Of a stretch of DNA of 61,260 nt, positions 3,730 to 39,422 are shown one piece after another (the stretch's first letter is position 1; every line of letters starts with the position of its first letter). Origin of the DNA: Bacillota bacterium (GTDB lineage: Bacteria; Bacillota_I; Bacilli_A; ML615J-28; CAG-313); the NCBI GenBank assembly GCA_963648435.1, contig CAVJDT010000004.1, positions 1-61,260 on the forward strand. Reading direction: 5' to 3'. The position numbers and the translations under genes are program-made. The notes under the pieces are model-generated. The model was not told the origin of the DNA and made no database searches. It was given only the letters and a program-made list of their open reading frames with translations.

Positions 3730-3804
3730 ACCCTTCCTAAGAAGCTTTTTTGATATTTTAGCGTTTGAGATTAATAATTACCTTAATAAATAATTTCAAA
3801 CGCT
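3730..3804 (+). repeat. GAGCGTTTGA-family hairpin repeat, copy 1
   Basis: ACCCTTCCTA head (3730-3739), 14-bp hairpin AGCGTTTGAGATTA...TAATTTCAAACGCT (3760-3804). Confidence 0.7.
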
Positions 3805-3843
3805 TCAATAAAGGTTGTAATTTTAGAAGTATAAAAGGATTTG

Positions 3844-3897: not shown

Positions 3898-3975
3898 GTT
3901 GCGAGTCTGCAACCGCACAAAAATGGTTTAAGTACATTAATAGTCACCATAATGGCGTGTCTTAAATTTTTTAAA
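3898..3975 (+). promoter_or_regulatory. Candidate ribosomal-protein L21 leader (5' UTR of rplU-prp-rpmA)
   Basis: About 90-nt UTR between the consensus promoter and the rplU RBS, with stem GCGTTGC-GAGTCT-GCAACCGC. Firmicutes have a known L21 leader at this position. Structure not verified. Confidence 0.3.
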
Positions 3976-6928: not shown

Positions 6929-7678
6929 ATGATAATGTTATTTGATATTGGAAATTCAAATATTAAAATAGGACTTTCAAATGGTAAAAATATAGACCAA
7001 ATTGTTCGTTTAAAATCAGAAGTTAATAAGACCGCTGATGAATATTATTTATTAATCAATAATTTTCTTAAAGAAAAAAAGATTGAAGGTGCTATCATCT
7101 CTAGTGTAGTACCAGAACTTACAACCATTTTATCATTTATGTGTAAAAAGTTTTTTGGAATAGTCCCTTTAGTATTTGGTCAAAAATTAAAAACTGGTTT
7201 AATGATTGTTGCGGACAACCCCATGGAAGTTGGAGCTGACTTAATTGCTGATGGCGTTGGTTCGATGGCCTATGGTAATAATGTTTTAGTCATTGACCTT
7301 GGTACCGCAACCAAGTTTATTTATGTCCAAAATAAAGCTTTTAAAGGTTGTACGATTGCTCCAGGAGTTCAAAGTTCTCTAAATTCATTAGTATCATCTA
7401 CAGCTTTACTGCCTAATATTGAAATTAAAGCTCCTAAGAAAGTTTTAGGAAATAATACAATTACTTGTATGCAATCAGGAGTTACATTCACTTTTGCGGC
7501 GATGATTGATGGAATGATTGAAAGAATTAAGAAAGAAGAAAACCTTAATGATCTTACAATAGTTGCAACGGGAGGTCTATCTAAAGCGATAATTCCCCTT
7601 TGTTTTAATGAAATTAAAATTGATGAATTTCTTACTTTAAAAGGAATTTTACAAGTCTATTTAAAAAATAGTAATTAA
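6929..7678 (+). CDS. coaX: Type III pantothenate kinase
   Basis: MLFDIGNSNIKIG and ATGGLS ASKHA-fold phosphate motifs. About 250 aa. Confidence 0.85.
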   Translation: MIMLFDIGNSNIKIGLSNGKNIDQIVRLKSEVNKTADEYYLLINNFLKEKKIEGAIISSVVPELTTILSFMCKKFFGIVPLVFGQKLKTGLMIVADNPMEVGADLIADGVGSMAYGNNVLVIDLGTATKFIYVQNKAFKGCTIAPGVQSSLNSLVSSTALLPNIEIKAPKKVLGNNTITCMQSGVTFTFAAMIDGMIERIKKEENLNDLTIVATGGLSKAIIPLCFNEIKIDEFLTLKGILQVYLKNSN

Positions 7679-7682
7679 AATT

Positions 7683-7747
7683 AAACCCTTCCTAGAGCGT
7701 TTGAAATTGAAATAATGCTTAATTATTCATCTCAAACGCTTTTTTTT
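7683..7747 (+). repeat. GAGCGTTTGA-family hairpin repeat, copy 2
   Basis: AAACCCTTCCTAGAGCGTTTGA (identical 22-mer at 14120-14141), then a hairpin closed by TCAAACGCT and T7. Confidence 0.8.
7696..7747 (+). terminator. Terminator after coaX, formed by a repeat-family hairpin
   Basis: AGCGTTTGA...TCAAACGCT outer stem with an extended imperfect inner stem, then T7. Confidence 0.65.
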
Positions 7748-10384: not shown

Positions 10385-12188
10385 ACATCAAATTATTGAA
10401 CTTCCTGAAGAATTAAAAAACTTAATATCCGCAGGTGAAGTAGTTGAACGTCCCGCAAGCGTTGTTAAGGAATTAGTGGAAAATAGTATTGATGCCGAAG
10501 CAACAATTATCAAAATTGAACTAACTGATGGGGGCTTAAAGAAAATAACTGTTACCGATAATGGAATTGGCATGAATAAAGATGAAGTACCAATTGCTTT
10601 AAAACGAAATGCTACTAGTAAAATTAGAACAAGTGATGATTTATTTAGTATCTCCTCATTAGGCTTTAGGGGTGAGGCATTACCTTCGATTGCTAGTGTA
10701 TCACTTTTTAAAATTTCAACATCAACTAATGATCTTGATGGTTATTCATTTTTTTGTAAAAATGGAAAAATAGTTACGGAAAAACCTTGTGCCATGCCTA
10801 AGGGTACAAAAATAGAAGTCGAAGATTTATTTTATAATACTCCTGCTCGCTACAAACATTTAGGAAGTATCTCCCAAGAGGTTGCAAATATCACTTCATA
10901 TATTAATCGCATTGCTCTTGCTTATCCTGAGGTTTCCTTTATTTTAACTAACAATAATAAAACCCTAATGCAAACAGATGGAAAAAATAATATTCCATTA
11001 ATCATTAGTGAAACATTCGGCCATGATGTTGCTAGAAATTTAATTAGTTTTGAAGGCTCTAATGATTTATATCATCTTGATGGTTTTACAACTAGTAATG
11101 CCATTAACCGTTCTAATAAAAATGGAATTATCATCATAACCAATGGTAGAGTTATTAAGAACCAATCTTTGATTTATGCAATTACCGATGCATATCAAAC
11201 GATTATACCGATTGGTAAATATCCAATTACCGTTTTATATATAACTTGTGATTATGGCCTTGTAGATGTGAATATTCATCCTTCAAAACTTGAAATAAAA
11301 TTTACAGATGAATTTAGATTAAAACAATTAATTTCTCGGACAATTTATCAAGCTATTAATAAAAAAGAACTAATAACTGAACCAGTTCAAGAAAATAAAC
11401 TTACCGAAGCAAGTCTTAATTCAAATACAACTCTTCTAACAGCGTTTGAATTTAAAAAAGATGAAGAATTACCGACTGATGCTTTGTGGGATATGTTTGA
11501 AGAATATAATGAACAAAAAAATGAAGATTCAAATTCCATAAATAAAAATGTTAAGATTGACTATGAATCAGAATCTTTAATAAAAACTAAAGATATTGAA
11601 TTTTTCAAAAGTCTTAATTATATCGGTCAATTTAATAAAACTTATCTATTACTTGAAAATGATGATAATCTATACATAATTGACCAGCACGCAGCGATGG
11701 AAAGATGCATGTATGAAAAAATTAGAAATTCCTTAATTAGTGATACAAACAAACTAACCTATGAACTTTTAATTACTTTAAAGTTAGAATACAATGTTTC
11801 CATGATTGAACTAATAATGGAACAAAAAGAAGAACTTAAAAAAATGCATATAATTATCGAACCATTTGGAAATACAACTATCTTAGTACGGGAAGTGCCT
11901 AGTTGGATTAAAGAAAGTAATGCTGAAAACATGGTCCGTGACATTATTGAACATTTACTTACAAATCGCCATGTTAATAAGCAAATAATGCTTGATAGTC
12001 TTGCGAAAAAACTAAGCTGTAAAAAATCAATTAAAGCAAATATGGCTATAACTGATTTAGAAGTAAAAACTTTAATGGCTAACTTAGATAATTGTGAAAT
12101 GCCTTATACATGTCCTCATGGTAGACCAACCACAATTAAGTTTACTAAATATGAACTTGAAAAAATGTTTAAACGGGTGATGCCATGA
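10377..12188 (+). CDS. mutL: DNA mismatch repair endonuclease MutL
   Basis: GHKL N-terminus (VKELVENSIDA), endonuclease motif DQHAAMERCMYE, C-terminal CPHGRP. Overlaps the mutS stop by 8 nt. Confidence 0.95.
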   Translation: MNKHQIIELPEELKNLISAGEVVERPASVVKELVENSIDAEATIIKIELTDGGLKKITVTDNGIGMNKDEVPIALKRNATSKIRTSDDLFSISSLGFRGEALPSIASVSLFKISTSTNDLDGYSFFCKNGKIVTEKPCAMPKGTKIEVEDLFYNTPARYKHLGSISQEVANITSYINRIALAYPEVSFILTNNNKTLMQTDGKNNIPLIISETFGHDVARNLISFEGSNDLYHLDGFTTSNAINRSNKNGIIIITNGRVIKNQSLIYAITDAYQTIIPIGKYPITVLYITCDYGLVDVNIHPSKLEIKFTDEFRLKQLISRTIYQAINKKELITEPVQENKLTEASLNSNTTLLTAFEFKKDEELPTDALWDMFEEYNEQKNEDSNSINKNVKIDYESESLIKTKDIEFFKSLNYIGQFNKTYLLLENDDNLYIIDQHAAMERCMYEKIRNSLISDTNKLTYELLITLKLEYNVSMIELIMEQKEELKKMHIIIEPFGNTTILVREVPSWIKESNAENMVRDIIEHLLTNRHVNKQIMLDSLAKKLSCKKSIKANMAITDLEVKTLMANLDNCEMPYTCPHGRPTTIKFTKYELEKMFKRVMP

Positions 12189-13084
12189 ATAAAGTTATAA
12201 TTATTACCGGTCCTACCGGAATAGGAAAAACCAAATTATCAATTGAAGTTGCCAAAAAATACCACACTGAAATTATCAATGGTGATGCTTATCAAGTCTA
12301 TAAAGATATGGATATTTTAACTTCAAAAATTACTGAAAATGAAAAACAAAAGATCCCCCATCATTTATTTGACATTAAAGAACCAACTGAGGAATACTCC
12401 GTAGCAGAATATCAACAAAATGTAAGAAACTTAATTTTGGATTTTGAAAATAGAAATTTAATTCCTCTTATTGTCGGAGGTAGTGGTTTATATTTAGATA
12501 GTGTTATTTATGATTATGATTTCAGTAAGATGGGAAGAAACCTTGATACAGAAACAAAATATCAAAATCTAACAAACGAAGAAGTGCACAAAATCCTTGA
12601 AGGTTTAAATAAAGAAGCTGCTTCTAAAATTCATATGAATAACCGAAAACGAGTATTAAGGGCAATTGAACTAGCAAATGATAATGCTTTAGTAACTACG
12701 TTCAATAATCGACTTTTATATGATCCGTTAATTATCTTTTTAAATGAAGACCGTGAAAAATTATACATGGCTCTAAATAATCGAGTTGATAAAATGTTAG
12801 AAGATGGTTTGATTGATGAAGTGAAAAAATTATCATCAATGTCTTTAAGCAAGACGGCTCAAAAAGCAATTGGCTATAAAGAGTTTATACCTTACATAAA
12901 TGATGAAAAAACTTTAAATGAATGTATTGAAGAAGTTAAAAAAAATACTAGACATTATGCAAAAAGACAAATTACTTGGTTTAAGAATAAACAAAATATT
13001 ATAGTTTTAGAAATTAACCGTGAAAATTTTCAAGAAACTATTGATAAAGCATTTGCCATCATTGATGATTTTTTAAAAAAATAA
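12185..13084 (+). CDS. miaA: tRNA dimethylallyltransferase
   Basis: P-loop GPTGIGKT. ATGA overlap with mutL. mutS-mutL-miaA order conserved. Confidence 0.9.
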   Translation: MNKVIIITGPTGIGKTKLSIEVAKKYHTEIINGDAYQVYKDMDILTSKITENEKQKIPHHLFDIKEPTEEYSVAEYQQNVRNLILDFENRNLIPLIVGGSGLYLDSVIYDYDFSKMGRNLDTETKYQNLTNEEVHKILEGLNKEAASKIHMNNRKRVLRAIELANDNALVTTFNNRLLYDPLIIFLNEDREKLYMALNNRVDKMLEDGLIDEVKKLSSMSLSKTAQKAIGYKEFIPYINDEKTLNECIEEVKKNTRHYAKRQITWFKNKQNIIVLEINRENFQETIDKAFAIIDDFLKK

Positions 13085-13237
13085 AGTCCTTAAGGGGCTT
13101 TTTTCATTAATAAGGAAATTCCAATTTATAAAAAAAGTATATAATTTAATTATAAAAATATTTATCATTTAAAAAAATAAATTATTAGTTTTTTTCTATT
13201 TATAAGGTATTATGAATATAATGTAATGGTGATTTAA

Positions 13238-14161
13238 ATGCGAAAAAAAGGATTATTACTATTATCGTTTATAGCCTATGGCTTATTAATAGCAGGAATA
13301 GTTAAAGTAAAAATATACAAATATGAAAATAGTATTTATACAATTAATTCTAAAGCAGTTTCTTTTTCAGTTGATGCATCAAGTGCCATTGTTTATAATG
13401 CAAGTAATAAGGAAATATTATATCAAAAGAATTGTCATGAAAAATTATTCCCCGCATCAATTACGAAAATTCTAACTTGTATAACAGCTCTTGAAAACTA
13501 TGAATTAGATGATTATGTTTATGTAACATCAGAAATGATTAATACCATTGGTTCTAAAATCTATTTAATGCCTGGAGATTATGTAAAAGTAGAAGACCTA
13601 TTACTTGGTTTAATGTTAAATTCGGGAAATGACGCGGCTAAAGTTCTTGCGATGCATTTATCAGGAAATGAAAGTGATTTTATTTCTTTAATGAATAAAC
13701 TTGCCAAAAAAATTGGCATGAATGATTCAACCTTTAATAATCCATCAGGTTTAGATAATGAAACACTTAATTATACAACAGCCTATGATATGGCCATCCT
13801 TACCGCTTATGCTATTAATAATCAAGAATTTCGAAAAATCTTTGGTACTAAAGCAAAAGTAATTGAACTAGAAAACCATTTTTTATATTTACATCACAAG
13901 CATAAATTAGTTCAGTATTATAGTTATGTTTTAGGTGGTAAAACTGGTTATACGGAAAAAGCCGGAAGAACCTTAGTTACTGTCTATAATCAGAATAATA
14001 TTGATTTGATTGTGGTTACTTTAAATGCCCATAATGATTGGGAAATTCATCAAAATTTTTATCATTTATTTTTAGAAAAGAAAGAAGAGCAGACTAATGT
14101 TTTAACTTTTTTCATTGTAAAACCCTTCCTAGAGCGTTTGAGAGGTAAAAAAGATGATTAA
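13238..14161 (+). CDS. dacB: D-alanyl-D-alanine carboxypeptidase (S11 PBP), sporulation-type by context
   Basis: N-terminal TM. SxxK (SITK), SGN and KTG motifs. Followed by spmA-spmB as in B. subtilis. Confidence 0.75.
   Translation: MRKKGLLLLSFIAYGLLIAGIVKVKIYKYENSIYTINSKAVSFSVDASSAIVYNASNKEILYQKNCHEKLFPASITKILTCITALENYELDDYVYVTSEMINTIGSKIYLMPGDYVKVEDLLLGLMLNSGNDAAKVLAMHLSGNESDFISLMNKLAKKIGMNDSTFNNPSGLDNETLNYTTAYDMAILTAYAINNQEFRKIFGTKAKVIELENHFLYLHHKHKLVQYYSYVLGGKTGYTEKAGRTLVTVYNQNNIDLIVVTLNAHNDWEIHQNFYHLFLEKKEEQTNVLTFFIVKPFLERLRGKKDD
14120..14141 (+). repeat. GAGCGTTTGA-family repeat, copy 3 (head only, inside dacB 3' end)
   Basis: 22/22 identity to 7683-7704. Encodes ...KPFLERL of the DacB tail. 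Confidence 0.8.
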
Positions 14162-14744
14162 TTATGTTTGGAGCGTTCTCTTAATTGTTGGTATCATTAT
14201 CAGTATCTTCACCGGAAAGATTAATGATATGGGAAATATTATTTTAAATTCTTCAAATGAAGCTTTTGAAATATTTTTTAATGTTGCCTTGATCATTCTT
14301 TTTTGGGGTGGTGTTTTCAATATTGCAATTGAAAGTGGACTAATTAAGAACTTAACTAAGTTTTTAAGGAAACCATTATTAAAACTTTATCCTGAACTTA
14401 AAGCAGATGATATTGCCTTAGAATATATTTGTTCTAATATTATTGCTAATCTTTTAGGCCTTGGTTCAGCCGCGACCCCTCTTGGTTTAAAGGCTTTTGA
14501 AGAATTACAAAAAATTAATCCTCACAAAGAAAAACCATCGCGCAGTATGGTTACGTTTATCATTATGAACGTTAGTTCTTTTACATTATTTCCAACTACA
14601 ATTCTTGGAATTAGAACTATGTATAAAGGAACAAATGATGTTTCTTTGTTAACTTTAATGATTATTGGAACATTAGTGTCTTCCCTTTCCGCAATTCTTT
14701 TAGACCGACTTGTATATTTAATTGATAGGAAAAAAGCCAAATGA
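14154..14744 (+). CDS. spmA: Spore maturation protein A (nucleoside-recognition/Gate-domain membrane protein)
   Basis: Polytopic membrane protein. Overlaps the dacB stop by 8 nt. Position in the dacB-spmA-spmB operon. Confidence 0.8.
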   Translation: MINYVWSVLLIVGIIISIFTGKINDMGNIILNSSNEAFEIFFNVALIILFWGGVFNIAIESGLIKNLTKFLRKPLLKLYPELKADDIALEYICSNIIANLLGLGSAATPLGLKAFEELQKINPHKEKPSRSMVTFIIMNVSSFTLFPTTILGIRTMYKGTNDVSLLTLMIIGTLVSSLSAILLDRLVYLIDRKKAK

Positions 14745-17109: not shown

Positions 17110-18177
17110 ATGAATAATTTTGAAGCTTTAAGTCAATACATGATTCCAAGTAATATCTTAATAAAGATGTTAGAAGTATATAAAAGTATTGGTCAAAATA
17201 AATATCTAGAAGAAGAATTAGGTGATGCCAAATACTATTTAATTGAACAAAATATTGAAAGAGAAACTTTCATTATTGCCAGCACTTTAAATCTAAATAT
17301 TTCCGATAACCGGATGCGATTAATTATTACAAAGAATTCTAATCCTAACAATCAAGAAGAAAAAACTCTACTAGGAATTAAAGAAGTTTTAAAAATAATC
17401 CAAAAAGATGCCCCTGAACACACTTTTAATGGTAGTGATATTTTAGGTTACTTAAACCGTATTTTTGGAAAAAACTCTCATAAATTTAGCAATAAAAATT
17501 ATGATGAATTACTTGGGGTACGCAGTAAATTAACAAAACCAGTTAGTATGCGTCTTTCATATGAGAAAATGCTTGAGAATTATCATCTTAATGTAACCAA
17601 AGAAACATTTGAAAAACTATATTTAGCCATTGTTGCTTACTTAGAGATGGATTTAATGAAACCATATTCAGCCCATAATGAACTTGCTAGTTTACTTGCT
17701 TTATATTATATGTTAATAAGATCTAATGTAAATGTTTTTTACTATACTAGTTTTTTTGAAAAAATCATAACCAATAAAGATAGTTGGAATAATGAAAAAA
17801 GACTAAGTTTTATTAATTTTCCAACTAGTCATCTCCAATTGAATGGTTTAATCAACATAACTTTTGATATGGTTCTTAATTCATACCAAGAGTTAAAAGC
17901 CATAATTCGTGAAAAAAGTTTTGATAAACGGATGTATAAAGGAGACGGAATTGAACAAACAATTGCACGGTTACCTAGTACTTTCTCAAAGGAAGATATA
18001 AGAGCATATCATCCTGATGTTAGTGATTCAACGATAAACCGAGCTTTGTTTAAATTAAGAGATGAAAACTATATAATGCCACTTGGAAAGGGAAGAAGTG
18101 CAAGATGGGTAAAACTTGTAAAAGATAATAGTCCCAAAAACATTTTTGGATATAATTATGAAGAAAATGAAAAGTAA
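17110..18177 (+). CDS. Fic-fold protein with degenerate active site and C-terminal winged-helix domain
   Basis: Start set at ATG 17110, downstream of its own TTGCAT-17-TATAAT promoter (ORF-track 16972 overlaps the PAP2 gene). KPYSAHNELASLL occupies the place of HPFxxGNGR. C-terminus STINRALFKLRDENYIMPLGKGRSARW is wHTH-like. Confidence 0.5.
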   Translation: MNNFEALSQYMIPSNILIKMLEVYKSIGQNKYLEEELGDAKYYLIEQNIERETFIIASTLNLNISDNRMRLIITKNSNPNNQEEKTLLGIKEVLKIIQKDAPEHTFNGSDILGYLNRIFGKNSHKFSNKNYDELLGVRSKLTKPVSMRLSYEKMLENYHLNVTKETFEKLYLAIVAYLEMDLMKPYSAHNELASLLALYYMLIRSNVNVFYYTSFFEKIITNKDSWNNEKRLSFINFPTSHLQLNGLINITFDMVLNSYQELKAIIREKSFDKRMYKGDGIEQTIARLPSTFSKEDIRAYHPDVSDSTINRALFKLRDENYIMPLGKGRSARWVKLVKDNSPKNIFGYNYEENEK

Positions 18178-18970
18178 TTACCACACACATACATATTTAT
18201 GTAGACATGCGGAGGGAAAGCCAATTGACTATGTTAAAATAGCAAATGATTTAGGCTATCACACAATCGGCATAACCGACCATGGGCCAATAATTCAAAC
18301 AATCAAAGATCAAATTATAAGTCGCCGAATGAATTTTAACGAATATTATAATCTTTATCTGCCTGAGCTTGTAGATGCCCAAAAAGCTTATCCAAATATT
18401 AAAGTATTAAAAGGCCTTGAACTTGAATATTTTGAAGAAATGAAAGAATATTATCCTAAGTTTTTAGAACAATTAGATTACCTTGTACTTGGACAACATT
18501 TCATTCATCATCAAAATAAAATAATAAGTATCTATAGTGATGAAATTGATGCTTCCGCCATCAAATCATATGAAAAAGATGTTGTTAAAGCAATTGAAAC
18601 GGGATACTTTAAGATTTTAGCTCATCCTGATCTTTATTGTTGGACTTACAATAAATGGGATGAAGCCGCCATCTCGGTTGCTAAAGCCATCATTTCATCC
18701 GCAATCCAAAACAATGTTTATTTAGAAATTAATGCCAATGGAATCAGAAACTGTAGTCGTAAAGAACATAAATATTTATTAAGTAATGGTCATATCAGTT
18801 ACAGTTACCCTAAATATGAATTTTGGAAACTTGCAAAAGAGATGAATGCAAAAATCATTATTGACGATGATGCCCACTTTTTTAAGCACATGAATGATGA
18901 TGCAACATTAGAAGCAATTGAACTTGCGGATGAATTAAACATTGATGTATTAGATAAAATTGATTTATAA
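18146..18970 (+). CDS. PHP-family (HisJ-type histidinol-phosphatase-like) phosphoesterase
   Basis: NYHTHTYLCRHA metal-binding N-terminus, PHP-domain His/Asp pattern. Start ambiguous (ATG at 18146, 18158 or 18167). Confidence 0.7.
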   Translation: MDIIMKKMKSNYHTHTYLCRHAEGKPIDYVKIANDLGYHTIGITDHGPIIQTIKDQIISRRMNFNEYYNLYLPELVDAQKAYPNIKVLKGLELEYFEEMKEYYPKFLEQLDYLVLGQHFIHHQNKIISIYSDEIDASAIKSYEKDVVKAIETGYFKILAHPDLYCWTYNKWDEAAISVAKAIISSAIQNNVYLEINANGIRNCSRKEHKYLLSNGHISYSYPKYEFWKLAKEMNAKIIIDDDAHFFKHMNDDATLEAIELADELNIDVLDKIDL

Positions 18971-19017
18971 CCGTAATCAGAGCGTTTGAATTTTAAAAAC
19001 TAATATAATTATTAATT
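18969..19017 (+). repeat. GAGCGTTTGA-family repeat, copy 4 / left inverted repeat of the dif region
   Basis: AACCGTAATCAGAGCGTTTGAA (18969-18990), overlapping the PHP stop codon, followed by a 26-mer that recurs at 19212-19237. Confidence 0.8.
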
Positions 19018-19060
19018 TGAATTTTATTAAAGGGTCTATAATTAATAGCGTACAAATATT

Positions 19061-19083
19061 CCAGGAGAAATCCTGGTTTTTTT
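19061..19083 (+). terminator. Rho-independent terminator after PHP gene
   Basis: CCAGGA-gaaa-TCCTGG followed by T7. Confidence 0.75.
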
Positions 19084-19211
19084 ATCTTTAATTTTTTAAG
19101 TTTAACTTATTAAATAAAAAATTAAAACTAAATTATTAATTTAAGCTTTAATGTGATCAACAAATTAGTAACAATTAGTTATGCATTAAACCTTTGTTAT
19201 AGAAGATGAAA

Positions 19212-19237
19212 TTTAAAAACTAATATAATTATTAATT
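19212..19237 (+). repeat. 26-nt exact duplicate of 18992-19017
   Basis: TTTAAAAACTAATATAATTATTAATT in both places. Confidence 0.85.
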
Positions 19238-19501
19238 CAACTTGCAAATTAATTACAGAATCAAGTATGAAGCTAAAAGAAGCCTATATTCAAACGTTTA
19301 TAACTATGTTGATAAATTAAACATTAGCTATAAAGAAGATGAAATTTAGGTTGTTTTTGCCACTTAATAAATATAGTCATGATTTTTAAAATGATGTAGT
19401 TTATTTATTTAAAATTAGTTGAATTCGACAAATAAATACTCCATATAAGAAGTTTGCTACTATTAAATGCTTTATTTCGTCTATTTACACTTATGCGTTT
19501 T

Positions 19502-19529
19502 ACTTCCTATAATATATATTATGTTAACC
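19502..19529 (+). other. dif: dif chromosome-dimer resolution site (Xer recombinase target)
   Basis: ACTTCCTATAA-TATATA-TTATGTTAACC. 25/28 match to B. subtilis dif as recalled (ACTTCCTAGAATATATATTATGTAAACT). Right arm 9/11 to the E. coli XerD arm. Located at the + to - gene-polarity switch. Confidence 0.8.
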
Positions 19530-19690
19530 AATAAAAAAGTAAAGTAAAACCGAAATAAATTAACAATTATTTATTAACGTTGATAACTATATGAAATGTG
19601 GATAACCTATTTAAAACTATATCAGTATCTTTTACTTTAATAAAATAAAATCTATTATTTGTCGGTTTCTATACTCATTAAATTAAAATC

Positions 19691-19746
19691 TGAATTATTA
19701 ATTATCCATCTTTTTTAATTTCAAACGCTCAGATAACGGTTATTTT
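19691..19746 (-). repeat. GAGCGTTTGA-family repeat, copy 5 (inverted orientation; right IR a)
   Basis: The reverse complement of 19720-19741, AACCGTTATCTGAGCGTTTGAA, is 20/22 to 18969-18990. Preceded by the AATTATT arm. Confidence 0.8.
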
Positions 19747-19948
19747 TATAGCTAATCAACAAATCGATTAATTTATTTCATTTTTCTATTGATCCATATT
19801 TTAGCAATTCAATAAATAATTATTCTTTCATTATTTTTTATATGTTTTAAAAGGATTATTTAAATTAATATCTTAACTTATTAATTAACATAGTCCAATA
19901 AAATATCAAAACCTTGTTTTTTAAACTCCCGTTAAAATAGTTCAATGC

Positions 19949-19997
19949 GTAATTATTCAGCTTTTTTAATTTCAAACGCTCTAATAACGGTTATTTT
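19949..19997 (-). repeat. GAGCGTTTGA-family repeat, copy 6 (inverted orientation; right IR b)
   Basis: 19961-19997 is 35/37 identical to 19710-19746, offset 251 bp. The reverse complement of 19971-19992 is 20/22 to 18969-18990. Confidence 0.8.
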
Positions 19998-20166
19998 AAA
20001 TCATTAGCCTTAAATTAGCGCTTTTTTTGATTTAATCTTACTTATGATCAATTATTCATATTTCTGTTATTCTTTTAAATTTAGGCATTATTTTAGGCTT
20101 TATTTTTATAATTGAATAGATAAAATAAAAAAGATATCTTAAATAGATATCTCATAAATAAGTATG

Positions 20167-20189
20167 AAGGCAAAAAACCGCCTTTTTTT
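20167..20189 (+). terminator. Orphan terminator-like hairpin with no upstream gene
   Basis: AAGGC-aaaaaacc-GCCTT followed by T7. The nearest + strand CDS ends 1.2 kb upstream. Confidence 0.4.
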
Positions 20190-20228
20190 GATTTTAATAT
20201 CAAAAGTGATTAATTATTCATTTTAAAG

Positions 20229-20276
20229 AAAAAATGCCAAAAATAAGCCTAAATTAAGCTCAAATTGGCATTTTTT
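20229..20276 (-). terminator. Probable terminator of alpha/beta hydrolase gene (A/T-flanked, bidirectional shape)
   Basis: AAAAAATGCCAA...TTGGCATTTTTT, 8-bp stem with a large loop. Confidence 0.5.
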
Positions 20277-20327
20277 AATACTTTATTAAGTTTCAAAATA
20301 TGTTGATTTTACTTATATTTAATGACA

Positions 20328-21242
20328 TTATTTGTTATAAAACGAAATAATCATATCATATACCTGTTTTTTGATCTCATCAGATTCATTATGAACTTCA
20401 TGTCTAGCATTATCAATTAATTTATAAGTAACATTTAAATTATACTTTTTATAAAGTTTAGCAAGACGTACAATTGATTTGCCATAATTACTCACAGGGT
20501 CTTCTATTCCAGAATAAAGTAAAATCTTAACGTTTGGATTAATGTTTTTAAGATTTTTAGGTTTCACATTCTCACACATCATTTTCGCCATTGAATAAAA
20601 ATAGTTCGCAGAAAAATCCTTGCCACAATATTTATTATTTTCAAATTCTTTAATATTATCTTTATTAATGCTTAACCAACCATATTTTGGATGGTCATTC
20701 TTGAAACGCTTATTAAATCCATCAGTTGTTAATTTTAAGACAAGATTTGAATATTTAATTTTATCTTTGCTTGAACAAAGTCTTAAAATAGGTTTTCCAA
20801 ATGCATATCTACCCCCACCAATATCAGTACCACTTAAAACTACATAATCAAAATCATTAGGATACTTTTGAATATAACGCTGAGCGGCCATGGAGCCCAT
20901 TGAGTGAGCAAATAAACATTTTTTAACGCCAATAAACTTTTCATCATATTCATCTCTGACTAGTTTCATGGCTTTAATAATCGCATCCATAAAGTCATAA
21001 TCAAGGGTTTCACCAATTTCATCTAATGAATTTGCGGAATCACCATGTGCAAAGTGGTCATGGCCTACAACCATGTAACCTGCTGAAACAAAGAAATTTG
21101 CCATTTCATCATATCTTAAGATGTTTTCAGCCATTCCATGAAAGATTTCAATTACCCCTTTTACTTTCATATTTTCCTCATACCATAAGTACGATACAAT
21201 ATTTGTTTTGTTATCAAATTTTAAAATTTTTTGTTCACGCAT
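20328..21242 (-). CDS. Alpha/beta hydrolase (lysophospholipase / monoacylglycerol-lipase-like)
   Basis: Nucleophile elbow AHSMGS, 304 aa. TAATG overlap with deoB. Confidence 0.75.
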   Translation of the reverse strand: MREQKILKFDNKTNIVSYLWYEENMKVKGVIEIFHGMAENILRYDEMANFFVSAGYMVVGHDHFAHGDSANSLDEIGETLDYDFMDAIIKAMKLVRDEYDEKFIGVKKCLFAHSMGSMAAQRYIQKYPNDFDYVVLSGTDIGGGRYAFGKPILRLCSSKDKIKYSNLVLKLTTDGFNKRFKNDHPKYGWLSINKDNIKEFENNKYCGKDFSANYFYSMAKMMCENVKPKNLKNINPNVKILLYSGIEDPVSNYGKSIVRLAKLYKKYNLNVTYKLIDNARHEVHNESDEIKKQVYDMIISFYNK

Positions 21243-22421: not shown

Positions 22422-23321
22422 TTATTTATCTCCTCTCGGGTGGGCACTATTATATACAGATTTTATTTTTTGCTTACTTAAATGCGTGTAAATTTGAGTT
22501 GTTGAAATATCCTCATGACCAAGCATTTCTTGAATATAGCGAAGATCAGTTCCCGCTTCTAGTAAATGGGTTGCAAAAGAATGACGCAAAGTATGAGGGG
22601 AGATTTCTTTTTCAATCCCCGCATCTTTTGCAAGTCTTTTAAGTATTAAGAAAAAACTTTGTCTTGAAAGCGGTTGACCCTGATTATTAAGAAAAAGATA
22701 ATTATTATCCTTACCATTTTTAATTAGTTCAGGTCGATATTTCACAATATAATCACGCAATATTTTTGATGCATAATCATTAATTGGAACAATTCGTTCT
22801 TTACTTCCTTTACCAGTTGTTGAAATCATTTTACTCGTTAAATGTAATTCATTAAGTTTTAAATTAACTAATTCAGATACCCTTAAACCAGTTCCATACA
22901 TTACCTCAATCATTGCTCTATTTCTCGCATTATAAGGGGTGTCATCATTTAAACTGTTTAATAACATCATTACTTCTTCTACTGATAATACCGTTGGAAG
23001 TTTTTTATCAAGTTTGGGAGCACTAATTGAAAGAGTTGGATTATGTTTAGTGTAGTGTTCAAGAACTAAAAACTTATGAAAAGATTTTAAAGTACTAAGT
23101 GCTCTACTACTAGATGAAGGAGAATACCCCATTTTCTTTAAGTATGCTAAATAATTTTTGACATCTTCGGTTGTAACATTTTTAATATCCGTTATGCCCT
23201 TTACATTTTCTAGATAATATAAATAATTTAAAACATCACTGCCATATGACTGAATCGTATTATTACTTTTCATTTTTTCACTGGCAAGATATGTTGTATA
23301 TTCAGTTACTAATTCATCCAT
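22422..23321 (-). CDS. xerD: Site-specific tyrosine recombinase XerD
   Basis: Catalytic residues in GLRVSEL, HTLRHSFATHL, LGHEDISTTQIYTH. xerD-deoB order as at the B. subtilis ripX-drm locus. Confidence 0.85.
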   Translation of the reverse strand: MDELVTEYTTYLASEKMKSNNTIQSYGSDVLNYLYYLENVKGITDIKNVTTEDVKNYLAYLKKMGYSPSSSSRALSTLKSFHKFLVLEHYTKHNPTLSISAPKLDKKLPTVLSVEEVMMLLNSLNDDTPYNARNRAMIEVMYGTGLRVSELVNLKLNELHLTSKMISTTGKGSKERIVPINDYASKILRDYIVKYRPELIKNGKDNNYLFLNNQGQPLSRQSFFLILKRLAKDAGIEKEISPHTLRHSFATHLLEAGTDLRYIQEMLGHEDISTTQIYTHLSKQKIKSVYNSAHPRGDK

Positions 23322-23329
23322 AAAGGCTC

Positions 23330-24454
23330 CTAAATTATTTTAATTATAATATGGTTAGCGATATAACTATAGCGACTTGGAATTTTAATATAACCATTTA
23401 TTTCTTCAAGTAATCCTTCATTTATTAGTTTTAAAATAATTGGAAATTTAGAAGCTAATTCAATCTGGTATTTTTTGAAAAAATTAGTTTTACTGATTCC
23501 TTCCATCTTTCTAAGTCCTAACATAATTTCATCATTCATTTCATCATTAATTGATTGTGACTCATAATCTTCAAGTTCAAGTTGACCTTTAATAAGTCCT
23601 TCATAGTATTTTTCTAAATTACGAATGTTGGTATAGCGTTCATGATTTAAATGAGTTGCGGCGGCAACTCCAATGCCAAGGTATTCTTCATTATTCCAGT
23701 ACAACAAATTATGTTTTGACTCAAATCCTTTAATTGCAAAATTACTAGTTTCATAATGGATAAAACCATGTTCTTTTAAAATATCATTAATTTTTTCATA
23801 CATTGAAGCATCTAGGTCATCACTTGTTAATTCAAACTTTTTTTCTTGATACCATTTATTTAAGATGGTATGATTTTCTAAAATTAAGGAGTAAGTAGAT
23901 AGATGGGTAATACCTAGTTTAAGTAAACAATCAACATCATTTATAACATCATCAATTGTTTCATTAGGTATGCCATAAATAAGATCACAGTTGATATTTG
24001 TTATGCCTACTTTTTTAATTAATTTTATTTTATCTTTAATTTCATTAAAATCAAAATAAGTATTACGACCCAAAAAGGCAATAATTTCTTTTTTAAAACT
24101 TTGAATTCCCATGCTAATTCTTGAAACATGATAAGTTTTAAAAAGTTGTAATAATTCAAATGTAACATCTTCAGGATTAACTTCAACCGTAAATTCTGAA
24201 AGCGTACTTAAATTAATATTTTTATCTAAGTAATCAAATAAGTCTTTTAAATCATCTAAATTTAAAGAACTAGGCGTTCCACCACCGATGTATAAGGTGT
24301 CGAACTGATAATTATTAAGCTTTTTAATTTTCATCTCCGCTAGGAGCGCTTTTACATACTTAGATTTGAAAGAATCACTAACAACCATTTTGTAAAAATC
24401 ACAATAATGACAAATGTGACGACAAAAGGGAATATGAATATATAATCCTAACAT
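23330..24454 (-). CDS. hemW: Radical SAM heme chaperone HemW (HemN-like)
   Basis: CRHICHYCDF CxxxCxxC motif plus HemN_C domain. Start at ATG 24454 behind AGAGGTGA. Downstream of lepA as in Bacillus. Confidence 0.88.
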   Translation of the reverse strand: MLGLYIHIPFCRHICHYCDFYKMVVSDSFKSKYVKALLAEMKIKKLNNYQFDTLYIGGGTPSSLNLDDLKDLFDYLDKNINLSTLSEFTVEVNPEDVTFELLQLFKTYHVSRISMGIQSFKKEIIAFLGRNTYFDFNEIKDKIKLIKKVGITNINCDLIYGIPNETIDDVINDVDCLLKLGITHLSTYSLILENHTILNKWYQEKKFELTSDDLDASMYEKINDILKEHGFIHYETSNFAIKGFESKHNLLYWNNEEYLGIGVAAATHLNHERYTNIRNLEKYYEGLIKGQLELEDYESQSINDEMNDEIMLGLRKMEGISKTNFFKKYQIELASKFPIILKLINEGLLEEINGYIKIPSRYSYIANHIIIKII

Positions 24455-26370: not shown

Positions 26371-26688
26371 TTATTCTTCTTTATTTTCTTCATTATTTGA
26401 TTTTTTAAATTTGATATAATGTAAAATATACATTGTTGTATAGGCAATTGATACTAAAATGATTAAACAATAACATATTGTTACGATAATTGAACTAGCC
26501 TTAAAACCAATTGAAATTAAATTATAAAGACTTACTCCTAATAAAAGTAACGTAATTATTACATTAGTAATCAAGTCTCCAGCTTTTTTAGTTTTAATTT
26601 CAGAAACTAATAAACCAATCGAAATGATAAGAATAATAATTCCTAAAGCTTCATTCATACCAAATTGAACATTTGTTAAACTTAACAT
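26371..26688 (-). CDS. Small membrane protein (3 predicted TM), unknown function
   Basis: Hydrophobic 105-aa ORF directly upstream of lepA, downstream of a consensus promoter. Occupies the position of yqxA in Bacillus (weak positional analogy only). Confidence 0.5.
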   Translation of the reverse strand: MLSLTNVQFGMNEALGIIILIISIGLLVSEIKTKKAGDLITNVIITLLLLGVSLYNLISIGFKASSIIVTICYCLIILVSIAYTTMYILHYIKFKKSNNEENKEE

Positions 26689-26743
26689 ATCTCGTTTTCC
26701 TTTCTAAAGCTTTTTGCTTCATTATTTTTTGTTACAACCAATA

Positions 26744-26772
26744 ATTATACATTATTTTTGATTTTTTTGCAA
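26744..26772 (-). promoter_or_regulatory. Sigma-A promoter of the small membrane gene-lepA operon
   Basis: - strand TTGCAA - 17 nt - TATAAT. Confidence 0.7.
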
Positions 26773-26776
26773 GAAC

Positions 26777-27112
26777 TTAGAAATCTAAGTTGTAACTATT
26801 GTCAGTTAAATTAAGATACTCGGTTTCAACATGATATGTTTTTTCTAAATAATCCATAATCTGTTTATTATAAATATTTGTATAAACAATTTTTCTAACA
26901 TTTAAAGTAATAACTAATTCTTCTAAATGAACTGCCGTACTTGAAACTAAACCATTTTTAAGAATTATTTGAAAAGGAACTATTAAATCTACATCTTCAT
27001 TTATCGTTTTAACATTACACATTTTATTAATAATCATCATTCGCTTACTAAATTTACTGTTTTTCACAAAGTTTTGTAATTGTTTATCCATATTACCAAT
27101 AATTAAAATCAT
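26777..27112 (-). CDS. Hypothetical 111-aa cytoplasmic protein
   Basis: ATG 27112 behind AGGGGTGA. The ORF-track start 27172 overlaps the divergent promoter. No family recognised. Confidence 0.5.
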   Translation of the reverse strand: MILIIGNMDKQLQNFVKNSKFSKRMMIINKMCNVKTINEDVDLIVPFQIILKNGLVSSTAVHLEELVITLNVRKIVYTNIYNKQIMDYLEKTYHVETEYLNLTDNSYNLDF

Positions 27113-27166
27113 TATTATCACCCCTATATAATATGCAAGTTTTAATAAATTGTTTAAGCCAATGCC

Positions 27167-27195
27167 TTGCAAAAAATAAAAAGATAAGATAAAAT
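27167..27195 (+). promoter_or_regulatory. Sigma-A promoter of gene 27216-27734
   Basis: TTGCAA - 17 nt - TAAAAT. Confidence 0.6.
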
Positions 27196-27215
27196 ATTGA
27201 AAAAGGAGTAATTAT

Positions 27216-27734
27216 ATGCCATATATTTTAATTATTGTGGGAATCATGATTCTCATATTTATTACAATTAGTATCATTAAACCAATTAAACATAAAAATA
27301 GTTTTGAATCATCTTTAAAGGAATTTTTAGAAAGCAATTATCATGAGCACTTCAAACTTCAAAAAAGTAATAATTCTTTATATAATTATGAACTAGAAAT
27401 ATATGATCACAAATTTGTCTTAAAAACTATTTCAATTCCAAGTTATGCAGAAGTGCAAATCAATAACAAAGTTACTTGGGAAATTAAATATGGAGCAGGA
27501 GCAACCCCAGGCCGTGCACAGCCCAATAAAAAATACTTATCAGGTATCGCTGGCTTTATGAATTATCAAAATAATGAGGCTTTAAAAGTTGTAGTTTTAA
27601 TTCCTGAAAGTAAACAAACCGTAATGTACATTAATGAATGTGAAATCATTTTAGTAACACCTATGACAAATGTTTATGGAATTAGAATCATGAACTGTAA
27701 TGATTTTACCCTTTTTAAAGATTTGAAAAAATAA
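27216..27734 (+). CDS. Hypothetical membrane-anchored protein (one N-terminal TM plus about 140-aa soluble domain)
   Basis: AAGGAG RBS, own promoter, hairpin terminator. A possible D...E.K nuclease-like pattern (YDHKF...EVQ...EIK) is only a guess. Confidence 0.55.
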   Translation: MPYILIIVGIMILIFITISIIKPIKHKNSFESSLKEFLESNYHEHFKLQKSNNSLYNYELEIYDHKFVLKTISIPSYAEVQINNKVTWEIKYGAGATPGRAQPNKKYLSGIAGFMNYQNNEALKVVVLIPESKQTVMYINECEIILVTPMTNVYGIRIMNCNDFTLFKDLKK

Positions 27735-36035: not shown

Positions 36036-37345
36036 TATTCTTCACGCTTTCTTAAAATAAACTGAATGGGAGTACCATCTAAGATAAAGGCTTCTCTTAT
36101 TTTATTTTCAAGATAACGTTTATAAGAAAAATGCATATAATTAGGGTCATTAACAAATAGCACAAAGGTTGGAGGAGTAGTGCTAGCCTGTGTTGCATAC
36201 ATTATTCTTAACCGGTCACCATTAAAAATGGGAGCTTGGTTCGCAATGGTGGCATCTAAAATCACATCATTAAGAATGTTTGTGGATACTCTTCTTGTAT
36301 AGTTTTCATATACTTGTTTGATTTGTTCAAATAACAAATGAACTCGTTCATTCTTTAAAGCAGAAACAAAGACTACTGGAGCATAACTTAAAAAAACAAA
36401 TTGAGCTCTTATTTTTTCAGTATACTCTTTCATGGACTTTTCATCCTTTTTAACTGCGTCCCATTTATTGACAACGATAATTACACCTTTATTTTGTTCA
36501 ATTGGAAGTCCGGCAATTCTTTTGTCTTGTTCTTCTAAAGGCTTAGTACCATCTAAAACCACTAAAACAATACTTGAGCGTTCAATTGCTTTTAGTGCCC
36601 TTAAGACACTATACTTTTCCGCATTCTCATAGATTTTACCTTGTTTTCTAATTCCTGCTGTATCTATTACCACATAGTTTTCGCCATCTTTAACAAAAGG
36701 AGTATCGATAGCATCTCTAGTTGTTCCGGGAATATCACTAACAATGACACGTTCAGTTCCTAAAATAGCGTTAGTTAAAGAACTTTTACCAACATTAGGT
36801 TGACCAATCAAACAAAATTCAACGGCGTTATCATATCGTTTAACTTTCTTTTCAGGTAAAGTAGAAACAATATAATCAAGCATATCACCAAAGCCAATTC
36901 CATGTAAGGCACTTATCGCAAATACTTGTTCAACCCCTAGATTATAAAATTCATAGATATTATCCATGAATTTTAAATCATCTATTTTATTCGCGGCGAT
37001 AACCACAGGTTTAGGAGAACGATGAAGAATATTCATAACATCTTCATCTTCCCTAGTTACACCAACTCTACCATCAACCACTAGAATAATTAAATCAGCT
37101 TCATCAATGGCAAGGGTGGCTTGAGCTCTTATTTCTTCCATAAAAGGAACATTAGATAGTTCAATTCCCCCAGTATCAATTAAGTCAAATTCTTGGTCAA
37201 GCCATTCGCATTTTGCATATAACCGGTCACGTGTAATTCCACTTACATCATCAGTAATCGCAAGTTTCGCCCCCGCAAGACGGTTAAAGACACTAGATTT
37301 ACCAACATTAGGACGGCCAACGATTGCAACCGTTCCTCGTTTCAT
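36035..37345 (-). CDS. der: Ribosome-associated GTPase Der (EngA)
   Basis: Two G domains (GRPNVGKSS and GQPNVGKSS) plus a KH-like C-terminus. Confidence 0.95.
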   Translation of the reverse strand: MKRGTVAIVGRPNVGKSSVFNRLAGAKLAITDDVSGITRDRLYAKCEWLDQEFDLIDTGGIELSNVPFMEEIRAQATLAIDEADLIILVVDGRVGVTREDEDVMNILHRSPKPVVIAANKIDDLKFMDNIYEFYNLGVEQVFAISALHGIGFGDMLDYIVSTLPEKKVKRYDNAVEFCLIGQPNVGKSSLTNAILGTERVIVSDIPGTTRDAIDTPFVKDGENYVVIDTAGIRKQGKIYENAEKYSVLRALKAIERSSIVLVVLDGTKPLEEQDKRIAGLPIEQNKGVIIVVNKWDAVKKDEKSMKEYTEKIRAQFVFLSYAPVVFVSALKNERVHLLFEQIKQVYENYTRRVSTNILNDVILDATIANQAPIFNGDRLRIMYATQASTTPPTFVLFVNDPNYMHFSYKRYLENKIREAFILDGTPIQFILRKREE

Positions 37346-39399: not shown

Positions 39400-39422
39400 A
39401 TTTTTCATACCTCAACTAAAAC

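Follow-up and report, generated by a model that had tools for sequence, protein, structure and literature searches.

Conserved, mirror-oriented sequence units on both sides of dif in a Bacillota bacterium and its uncultured relatives

Most bacteria are thought to have no dedicated terminus system beyond dif and the Xer recombinases, and the two fork traps and the few terminus-binding proteins that have been described are each found in narrow lineages. Fork traps evolved independently in enterics and in Bacillus. Both Tus-Ter, found in Enterobacteria and their relatives, and RTP-Ter of the Bacillus subtilis group consist of several copies of an asymmetric site, split into two groups that face each other across the terminus. 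Some of these sites lie within genes, and each system is confined to certain lineages, traps of this kind having evolved more than once. In fork-trap bacteria dif lies between the innermost, oppositely oriented ter sites, and such traps have arisen independently at least two times (PMC10331603). Here, a sequence unit of about 50 nt is described that flanks dif in a layout of this kind. It is found in a stretch of 61,260 nt, in the following called the window, from a Bacillota bacterium (GTDB lineage Bacteria; Bacillota_I; Bacilli_A; ML615J-28; CAG-313; assembly GCA_963648435.1, contig CAVJDT010000004.1, positions 1 to 61,260 of the forward strand). In a preliminary description of the same DNA a dif site flanked by inverted repeats was taken to be an undescribed arrangement. 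That was too strong a statement in view of the fork-trap bacteria, although the distances there are far larger and the sequences unrelated (PMC10331603).

Terminus sites of other kinds are also known. matS is a 13-bp palindrome, and the XDS resemble the XerD half of dif. The sites of MatP-matS in enterics, of XerD-XDS in B. subtilis and of ZapT in Caulobacter are concentrated around dif, as are the units described here. In such terminus-domain systems short sites around dif are read by a lineage-specific protein in order to organise or position the terminus (PMC11894783; PMC7188993). The units differ from matS and XDS in being long, asymmetric, oriented and not dif-like. With the KOPS and SRS motifs, which orient FtsK and SpoIIIE, and with Chi they share polarity, a leading-strand location and a switch of orientation at dif. 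However, these motifs are 5-8-mers that are skewed genome-wide, while outside the units no word of the unit shows a skew in the window (AGCGG 14 versus 14; GAGCG 15 versus 11), the top skewed words being purine-rich coding words. A reading as KOPS, SRS or Chi was rejected for this reason. The reverse complement of the unit head does resemble GAGAAGGG, in some relatives only, and it then points away from dif.

The repeat unit at the replication terminus

The region is a true replication terminus, since the GC skew switches from positive to negative at about 19 kb and the genes converge at dif, nearly all being on the plus strand to the left of about 19 kb and nearly all on the minus strand to the right. 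The dif site itself, a 28-bp XerC/XerD-type resolution site (ACTTCCTATAATATATATTATGTTAACC, 19502-19529, plus strand), is the only dif-like site in the window at up to five mismatches. It is located in a gap of 1.36 kb between the converging genes, in which no credible open reading frame (ORF) was found. The last gene of the left arm encodes a PHP-domain protein (ORF 18146-18970, plus strand), and is followed by an intrinsic terminator at 19061-19085 (plus strand), a hairpin (CCAGGAGAAATCCTGG) and then T7. A gene for a xerD-type tyrosine recombinase (22422-23321, minus strand; TIGR02225, 370.9 bits, above the cut-off) is found 3 kb from dif, and this synteny is kept in all relatives.

Three copies of a 22-mer surround dif. 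The left copy, AACCGTAATCAGAGCGTTTGAA (18969-18990, plus strand), begins within the stop codon of the PHP gene, TAA, while reverse-complement copies with two mismatches each lie at 19720-19741 and 19971-19992. The distance is 511 nt from the left copy to dif and 190 nt from dif to the first right copy. No further copies were found in the 61,260 nt at up to three mismatches, and 100 dinucleotide-preserving shuffles gave no match at all. The coordinates, distances and counts of the preliminary description are thus confirmed, with three copies at two mismatches or fewer against zero expected by chance. Its division into one left and two right repeats of 22 nt is correct for the 22-mer, but the 22-mer is only the core of a unit of about 50 nt, of which there is a second, degenerate left copy as well as four further copies elsewhere in the window.

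The unit was defined by a profile of about 52 nt, built from the copies and searched with nhmmer, and has the consensus ATAACCCTTCTCAGAGCGTTTGAAATTAAAAAAGATGAATAATTATTAATTC. Its best-kept positions are ATAACC, GAGCG, TGAAA, AAAAAG, and AATTA. Four units are arranged around dif in the order L1-L2-dif-R1-R2. L1 (18967-19018, plus strand) holds the left 22-mer; it starts in the PHP stop codon and lies just 5' of the PHP terminator. L2 (19189-19238, plus strand) has a degenerate head and a well-kept tail, and is located downstream of that terminator, outside any predicted mRNA. R1 (19692-19743, minus strand) holds the 22-mer copy at 19720-19741 and R2 (19943-19994, minus strand) the one at 19971-19992, and the two share 48 nt at 92%. 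The tails point toward dif on both sides, and the innermost units are only about 0.45 kb apart, centred on dif. The units are thus copies of a non-palindromic, clade-specific, and terminus-associated sequence of about 50 bp, of which the inverted 22-mers are the most conserved part, and which lies on the leading-strand side of each replichore, its tails approaching dif from both sides. The look of an inverted repeat is then due to the mirror orientation of the units about dif, and not to a mobile element or a stem.

Contigs of relatives were collected in two ways, from PHP-protein homologues with 53-88% identity and from a scan of metagenomes with one unit pattern. In that scan each match from a relative was a right-arm unit beside dif or, in the contig L017, at the end that abuts dif. 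In public records these uncultured gut bacteria go by the names Bacilli, Mollicutes or Eubacteriales bacterium. All eight lineages with complete dif regions have the gene order around dif in common, and across the unit-bearing clade the relatives do not differ in the first 26 bp of dif. Plus-oriented units are found to the left and minus-oriented units to the right of dif in 8/8 of these relatives, and in 8/8 the start of the first right unit is 179-223 nt away from that of dif. The dif-proximal left unit of the relatives is found at -283 to -430, and the copy number varies from one to three on the left and from one to four on the right. Wherever the left flank was read, the orthologous L1 copy is located directly 3' of the last left-arm gene. 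A hairpin equivalent to the PHP terminator is also found 3' of L1 in L008 and L009. In these two contigs a gene for an XRE-type helix-turn-helix protein and one for a small membrane protein are inserted between the PHP gene and L1 (L008 5900-6420; L009 5915-6554), and the unit follows the new last gene. L008 also carries a right-hand array of four units 77-138 nt apart (7339-7711). L017 is more distant and lacks a hydrolase gene in the right flank, yet three units at a period of about 210 nt lead up to dif (12814-13283).

It had been proposed to look for conservation of the repeat-dif-repeat arrangement in relatives. It is kept in all eight with complete dif regions and is missing in a more distant clade, in which the PHP protein is 46% identical, dif is located 92 nt past the gene, and no units are found. 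The unit family is therefore clade-specific.

When the gap between the converging genes is aligned for seven lineages, the identity to the window is 0.52-0.84 in the units and 0.22-0.50 in the spacers, while it is 1.0 in dif. The least conserved stretch to the right of dif is 19620-19680. Left and right units are about as similar within a genome (0.74) as between genomes (0.72), which shows that each copy is held to a common consensus and not to its partner. A common consensus is as expected for sites that would be read by one trans-acting factor.

These comparisons also bear on the structural explanations that come to mind for inverted repeats, namely that dif is carried by a structure like a miniature inverted-repeat transposable element (MITE) or by a segment able to invert, or that the left and right arms pair in a long-range stem or cruciform. 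The inverted arms extend to 45-60 nt with 78-80% complementarity, and several metagenome contigs break at dif, both of which fit such a structure. Nevertheless, a structural origin is very improbable. The arms lie 657-938 nt apart, which is too far for cruciform extrusion in duplex DNA. Taken singly, L1, R1, and R2 do not fold significantly (z = -0.8 to +0.1), and the near-equal similarity within and between genomes leaves no excess complementarity between left and right, and speaks against concerted evolution as well as pairing. The contigs break at dif itself and not at the repeats. No target-site duplication indicative of a MITE or another element derived from an insertion sequence is found, and the locus is one and the same, fixed in all relatives. 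Matches to plasmids and phages in a blastn search with 18960-20030 were confined to the dif core and came from other Firmicutes, and scans of viral contigs gave no match for the unit and none for the full dif. The orientation of dif relative to the flanking genes is constant wherever both can be seen, and the only recombinase gene nearby is xerD, no other invertase gene being present. Of the interpretations offered in the preliminary description, the MITE-like structure and the long-range cruciform or stem thus find no support, and the inversion that was to be looked for is not seen among the relatives.

Exchange between the copies has taken place. The tail of L1 (18987-19018) is identical to that of L2 (19207-19238) at 30/32 positions, as against 21-23/32 for the orthologous L1 tails of the relatives. 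The L1 tail has been overwritten by L2 in a short gene-conversion tract in the lineage of the window. L1, R1, and R2 of the window further share changes that are absent from the relatives. Both observations fit a largely passive, functionless repeat family. Such a family might go back to a palindrome of the terminator type or to a small inverted duplication that arose long ago at the terminus, and it would be maintained by local spread and gene conversion, the inverted look simply following the converging genes. The variable copy number with tandem arrays (four units in L008, three in L017) points the same way, as do the copies that are halves of hairpins, and very large inverted repeats are able to arise at termini (PMC5345009). 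A passive family is nonetheless unlikely. Positions and orientation are kept across lineages in which the neighbouring protein is just 53% identical, in an AT-rich genome whose spacers have diverged beyond alignment, and within-genome similarity is hardly above that between genomes, so that conversion alone fails to explain the shared consensus. A copy in mutL, moreover, is conserved at synonymous positions (see below).

Repeat families of this sort are well known. Like the units, REP/BIME, the pneumococcal BOX and RUP repeats (see PMC3049150), and the Rickettsia palindromic elements (RPEs) are modular elements of about 50-100 nt, some of which form hairpins at gene ends. RPEs occur in frame inside genes, as one unit copy does. 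However, families of the REP and BOX type are genome-wide and have tens to hundreds of copies at strain-variable sites, whereas the units, in the roughly 61 kb of this genome and 10-45 kb of each of several relatives, are few, occupy orthologous sites across deep relatives, cluster at the terminus and are mirrored about dif. Very large terminus inverted repeats are a different phenomenon. They share the inversion and the location at the terminus (PMC5345009; PMC8116677, PMC12199158), but they are recent, strain-specific duplications of 38-76 kb (PMC5345009) that include dif and result in two dif copies. There is only one dif between the 50-bp units, and the conservation of the units is ancient.

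Copies on the left arm and the transcripts that carry them

Four further copies, E1-E4, were found in the window. E1 (3760-3820) is a palindromic hairpin of two opposed cores, AGCGTTTGA and TCAAACGCT, between the pyruvate phosphate dikinase gene and the leader of the gene for ribosomal protein L21. In E2 (7684-7745, plus strand) head and core make up the 5' arm of a hairpin that is followed by T8 and constitutes the terminator after the pantothenate kinase gene (coaX), 33 nt before mutS. E3 (11429-11477, plus strand) is in frame within the variable linker of mutL. E4 (14120-14165, plus strand) covers the last codons of a D-Ala-D-Ala carboxypeptidase gene (dacB) together with the ribosome-binding site and the ATG of an spmA-like gene. 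With E2 just upstream of mutS and E3 in mutL, the motif is found on both mismatch-repair genes. A doubtful partial match, to the tail half only (24302-24335, minus strand; E about 1e-3), lies inside a hemW-like coding sequence. It is weaker still in relatives and may be coding similarity only. The nhmmer profile gave no significant match in the region 24.4-61.2 kb, and the six occurrences of the exact 10-mer AGCGTTTGAA all lie between 3.8 and 20 kb.

E3 and E4 are in place wherever the loci of the relatives reach, an ortholog of E2 is found in L016, and the position of E1 holds a plus-oriented copy in L022. The latter contig reaches to -29 kb and has copies at about -20 kb, -16 kb, and -7.8 kb, with none further out. 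Copies have accordingly been seen only from about -20 kb to +1 kb of dif, in the approximately 61 kb of this genome and about 10-45 kb scanned per relative, the further co-oriented ones lying within about 16-20 kb on the left arm. A scan of a genome collection for AACCGTNATNNGAGCGTTTGAA gave a single match, a chance one in a metagenome-assembled genome from Verrucomicrobia, in a collection outside which the species of the window falls.

The copies within genes use differing reading frames, and the similarity of the units is thus at the nucleotide and not at the protein level. A reading of the units as small ORFs fails for the same reason, and since the frames are not conserved between R1, R2, and the relatives. 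In the MutL linker the amino-acid identity is about 0.6 at E3 as against 0.2-0.3 in the flanks, and the identity at third codon positions is 0.81 as against about 0.55 gene-wide. It is thus shown that the units are present far in excess of chance expectation, that relatives have kept them in sequence, place and orientation, and that they are under constraint, also within a coding region.

The copies on the left arm of the window are all in the sense orientation relative to their genes, except for the palindromic E1. This gives rise to the main rival explanation, according to which the units act in transcripts. In that case a trans-acting antisense RNA could have its seed modules in the right-hand units, or the units in general could serve as terminator or RNA-processing modules. 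The sense copies are located in the coaX terminator, the mutL linker, the ribosome-binding site and start of spmA, where E4 spans both, and the 3' untranslated region of the PHP gene, and any plus-strand transcript through R1 and R2 would be the exact antisense of these left-arm copies. E1 and E2 are stable hairpins (z = -3.2 to -4.5), E2 with a T8 tail, and in the relatives R4 of L008 and R2 of L014, L013, and L016 pair with adjacent sequence to form hairpins. No ORF on the plus strand precedes the terminator found on that strand at 20166-20195, and a promoter-like site (TTTACA-N18-TATAAT) faces rightward from dif. The explanation would also account for the asymmetry between left and right copies. 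On the other hand, L1, R1, and R2 are without significant structure and L2 lies outside the predicted mRNAs. No conserved promoter is found directly upstream of R1, where the stretch 19620-19680 is the least conserved right of dif. Nor does an RNA give an obvious reason for the fixed spacing to dif and the mirror symmetry. The units match no Rfam family, as a search of 18500-20800 gave nothing at E up to 1, the sole match in the window at gathering level being the L21 leader. A role in RNA is hence a real, if rather unlikely, possibility. If it is correct, one motif would link mutS/mutL, sporulation genes, and the dif region in a new regulatory circuit. The unit was also considered as a promoter (TTGAAA ... 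TAATTA), and this was rejected since, by inspection, the -35-like hexamer is not conserved among the relatives.

Oriented sites and the likeness to fork traps

The reading that is preferred here, tentatively and as possible rather than probable, is that the units are oriented protein-binding sites marking the terminus, and that they may serve as polar barriers framing dif. A sequence-specific protein would bind the units as oriented DNA sites and act directionally at the terminus. The most plausible action would be that of polar barriers that confine the last steps of replication and segregation to the region of about 0.5-1 kb that contains dif, in functional analogy to the Tus-Ter or RTP-Ter traps, in which the innermost pair of opposed sites likewise encloses dif. 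That a single trans-acting factor binds the units is suggested because an asymmetric motif is kept in sequence, position and orientation, is mirrored about dif where the skew switches, clusters near the terminus, and is tolerated in genes under synonymous constraint. We infer that the constraint would act on the DNA rather than on RNA, with binding of a protein and polar arrest as its possible basis. Paired protein-binding sites framing dif were among the possibilities named in the preliminary description, and they are compatible with all of the findings.

Opposed groups of asymmetric sites with dif between the innermost pair are what L1/L2 and R1/R2 form, and the same holds for the eight relatives. 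By analogy the arrangement resembles a fork trap, but membership cannot be claimed. The unit bears no sequence relation to the two Ter consensus sequences and is about 50 bp long compared to 23-30 bp for the Ter sites, and neither tus nor rtp is seen among the window genes scanned. The innermost units are very close together around dif, back-up copies are found on one arm only, and fork arrest is in this case a proposal. Known Ter sites were also looked for in the window. The B. subtilis-type consensus had no match at up to three mismatches, and the E. coli Ter core pattern had one, at 26785, which is at chance level and outside the units. It is conceivable, though doubtful, that a third type of fork trap has evolved independently here, with the units as its ter sites. 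In such a trap a contrahelicase-type protein, bound to the oriented units, would let forks enter but not leave a region of less than 1 kb centred on dif, with back-up sites further out. If true, fork fusion would be coupled to dimer resolution more tightly than in any case seen so far, and the trap would be the first outside the Tus and RTP lineages.

The units might also act without any arrest of forks. They might be architectural or accessory sites for Xer recombination, at which a protein gives shape to the DNA around dif as at the plasmid sites cer and psi, or sites that tie the terminus to the place of division, like those of MatP-matS and ZapT. This is in line with the conserved distances of the proximal units from dif, with the xerD gene being kept 3 kb away, and with the clustering of units within about 20 kb of dif. 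Lineage-specific terminus-binding proteins do exist, as MatP and ZapT (PMC7188993) exemplify, and a copy of deviating orientation in L012 (see below) would be easier to accept. Still, an architectural role is quite unlikely. The accessory sequences of cer and psi are on one side of the core, while the units are on both. matS is palindromic, while the units are strongly asymmetric and have a conserved orientation. The units are, by inspection, unlike either half-site of dif. Their consensus shares just TAACC with the XerD arm, as judged by eye and without a formal alignment, and they were therefore rejected as dif half-sites, XDS or secondary dif sites.

Several findings weigh against polar protein-binding sites. 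The spread of the units is lopsided, with six units in the left 19.5 kb and two, plus the doubtful one, in the right 41.7 kb, and the sequence covered is limited to about 60 kb from this genome and 10-45 kb per relative. L022 has one minus-oriented copy at about -20 kb, and L012 carries to the right of dif, at +194, a good unit in plus orientation beside a degenerate one in minus orientation. E1, E2, and some of the right-hand units of relatives are parts of terminator-like hairpins. These hairpins and the sense orientation of the left-arm copies mean that an RNA-level role is equally allowed. Gene conversion between units means that their similarity is partly kept by recombination and not by selection, and a conserved unit of 50 bp is long for a single protein site. 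No candidate for the binding protein was identified among the window genes scanned, and none of the window ORFs scanned against Pfam or NCBIfam has a Tus or RTP domain. A 355-aa Fido/winged-helix-like neighbour was considered as the unit binder and discarded, as it is also present in the clade without units.

Judged by its sequence, the unit matches no known family, and full-text searches of the literature gave no account of short conserved units flanking dif. A conserved, mirror-oriented, dif-centred motif without known relatives in widespread uncultured gut Bacilli would represent another lineage-specific solution at the terminus, and whatever protein or RNA recognises the motif could be sought with the unit as DNA bait.

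Other features of the dif region and neighbouring genes

The gap between the converging genes contains other conserved sequences. DnaA-box-like words are found on both sides of dif: TGTTGATAA at 19307-19315, GTTGATAAC at 19579-19587, and the perfect TGTGGATAA at 19599-19607. The words to the right of dif fall in a stretch of about 100 nt that is near-identical in the relatives, and the whole is read as a DnaA-box cluster at the terminus. To the left of dif, the non-coding block 19360-19443 is strongly conserved; within it TCAT-N10-ATGA is invariant in eight lineages and GAATTCGACAAATAAATACTCC nearly so, and no conserved RNA structure was found in this block. The sigma-70-type promoter-like site mentioned above (19484-19513, 11/12 positions) overlaps the left arm of dif, and its -35-like hexamer and spacing recur, by inspection, in L008 and L009 and not in L012. 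To the right of R2 there are direct repeats at 20016-20062 and 20170-20224 (41 nt, 73%). In both of them a T-run is followed by a TGATTAATTATTCAT-like sequence, the reverse complement of which is the unit tail motif ATGAATAATTA.

Four independent metagenome contigs end at dif (L005 7407-7437, L006 7446-7475, L007 7421-7450, and L017 13540-13567; the window equivalent is 19502-19535). Three of them stop 2-3 nt past the 28-bp site, and one, which comes from the other arm, at the edge of the site. This suggests that the assembly graph branches at dif, owing either to a Xer-integrated element in part of the population or to mixtures of recombinant strains. One viral contig from IMG/VR (L023 8346-8366) carries a dif-like 21-mer, TTCCTANAATATATATTATGT, which may be a site for Xer-dependent integration.

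The genes mutS, mutL, and lepA, the two topoisomerase IV genes, and two other large ORFs have been named solely via precomputed Pfam matches of their orthologues. Small ORFs without matches remain at 26371-27734, and for two small ORFs without assignment sequence searches against the PDB gave no match. The gene for the 355-aa protein (17110-18177, plus strand) is a constant neighbour of the PHP gene near dif, also in the clade that has no units. The protein has no match in Pfam or NCBIfam but has a Fido-domain homologue in the PDB (8uqu, E = 2.5e-8). As judged by eye, the Fic active-site motif of the protein is degenerate, and the C-terminal end resembles a winged helix. Single-sequence AlphaFold models of this protein and of a 104-aa ORF had pLDDT values of 37 and 40, respectively, and were unusable. 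Further to the right, a single ORF of 687 aa (37345-39408, minus strand) combines cytidylate kinase with the repeats of ribosomal protein S1, and is thus a cmk-rpsA fusion. The ribosomal protein L21 leader (RF00559, 49.4 bits) is found at 3901-3972 (plus strand) upstream of rplU, with the hairpin E1 just before it.

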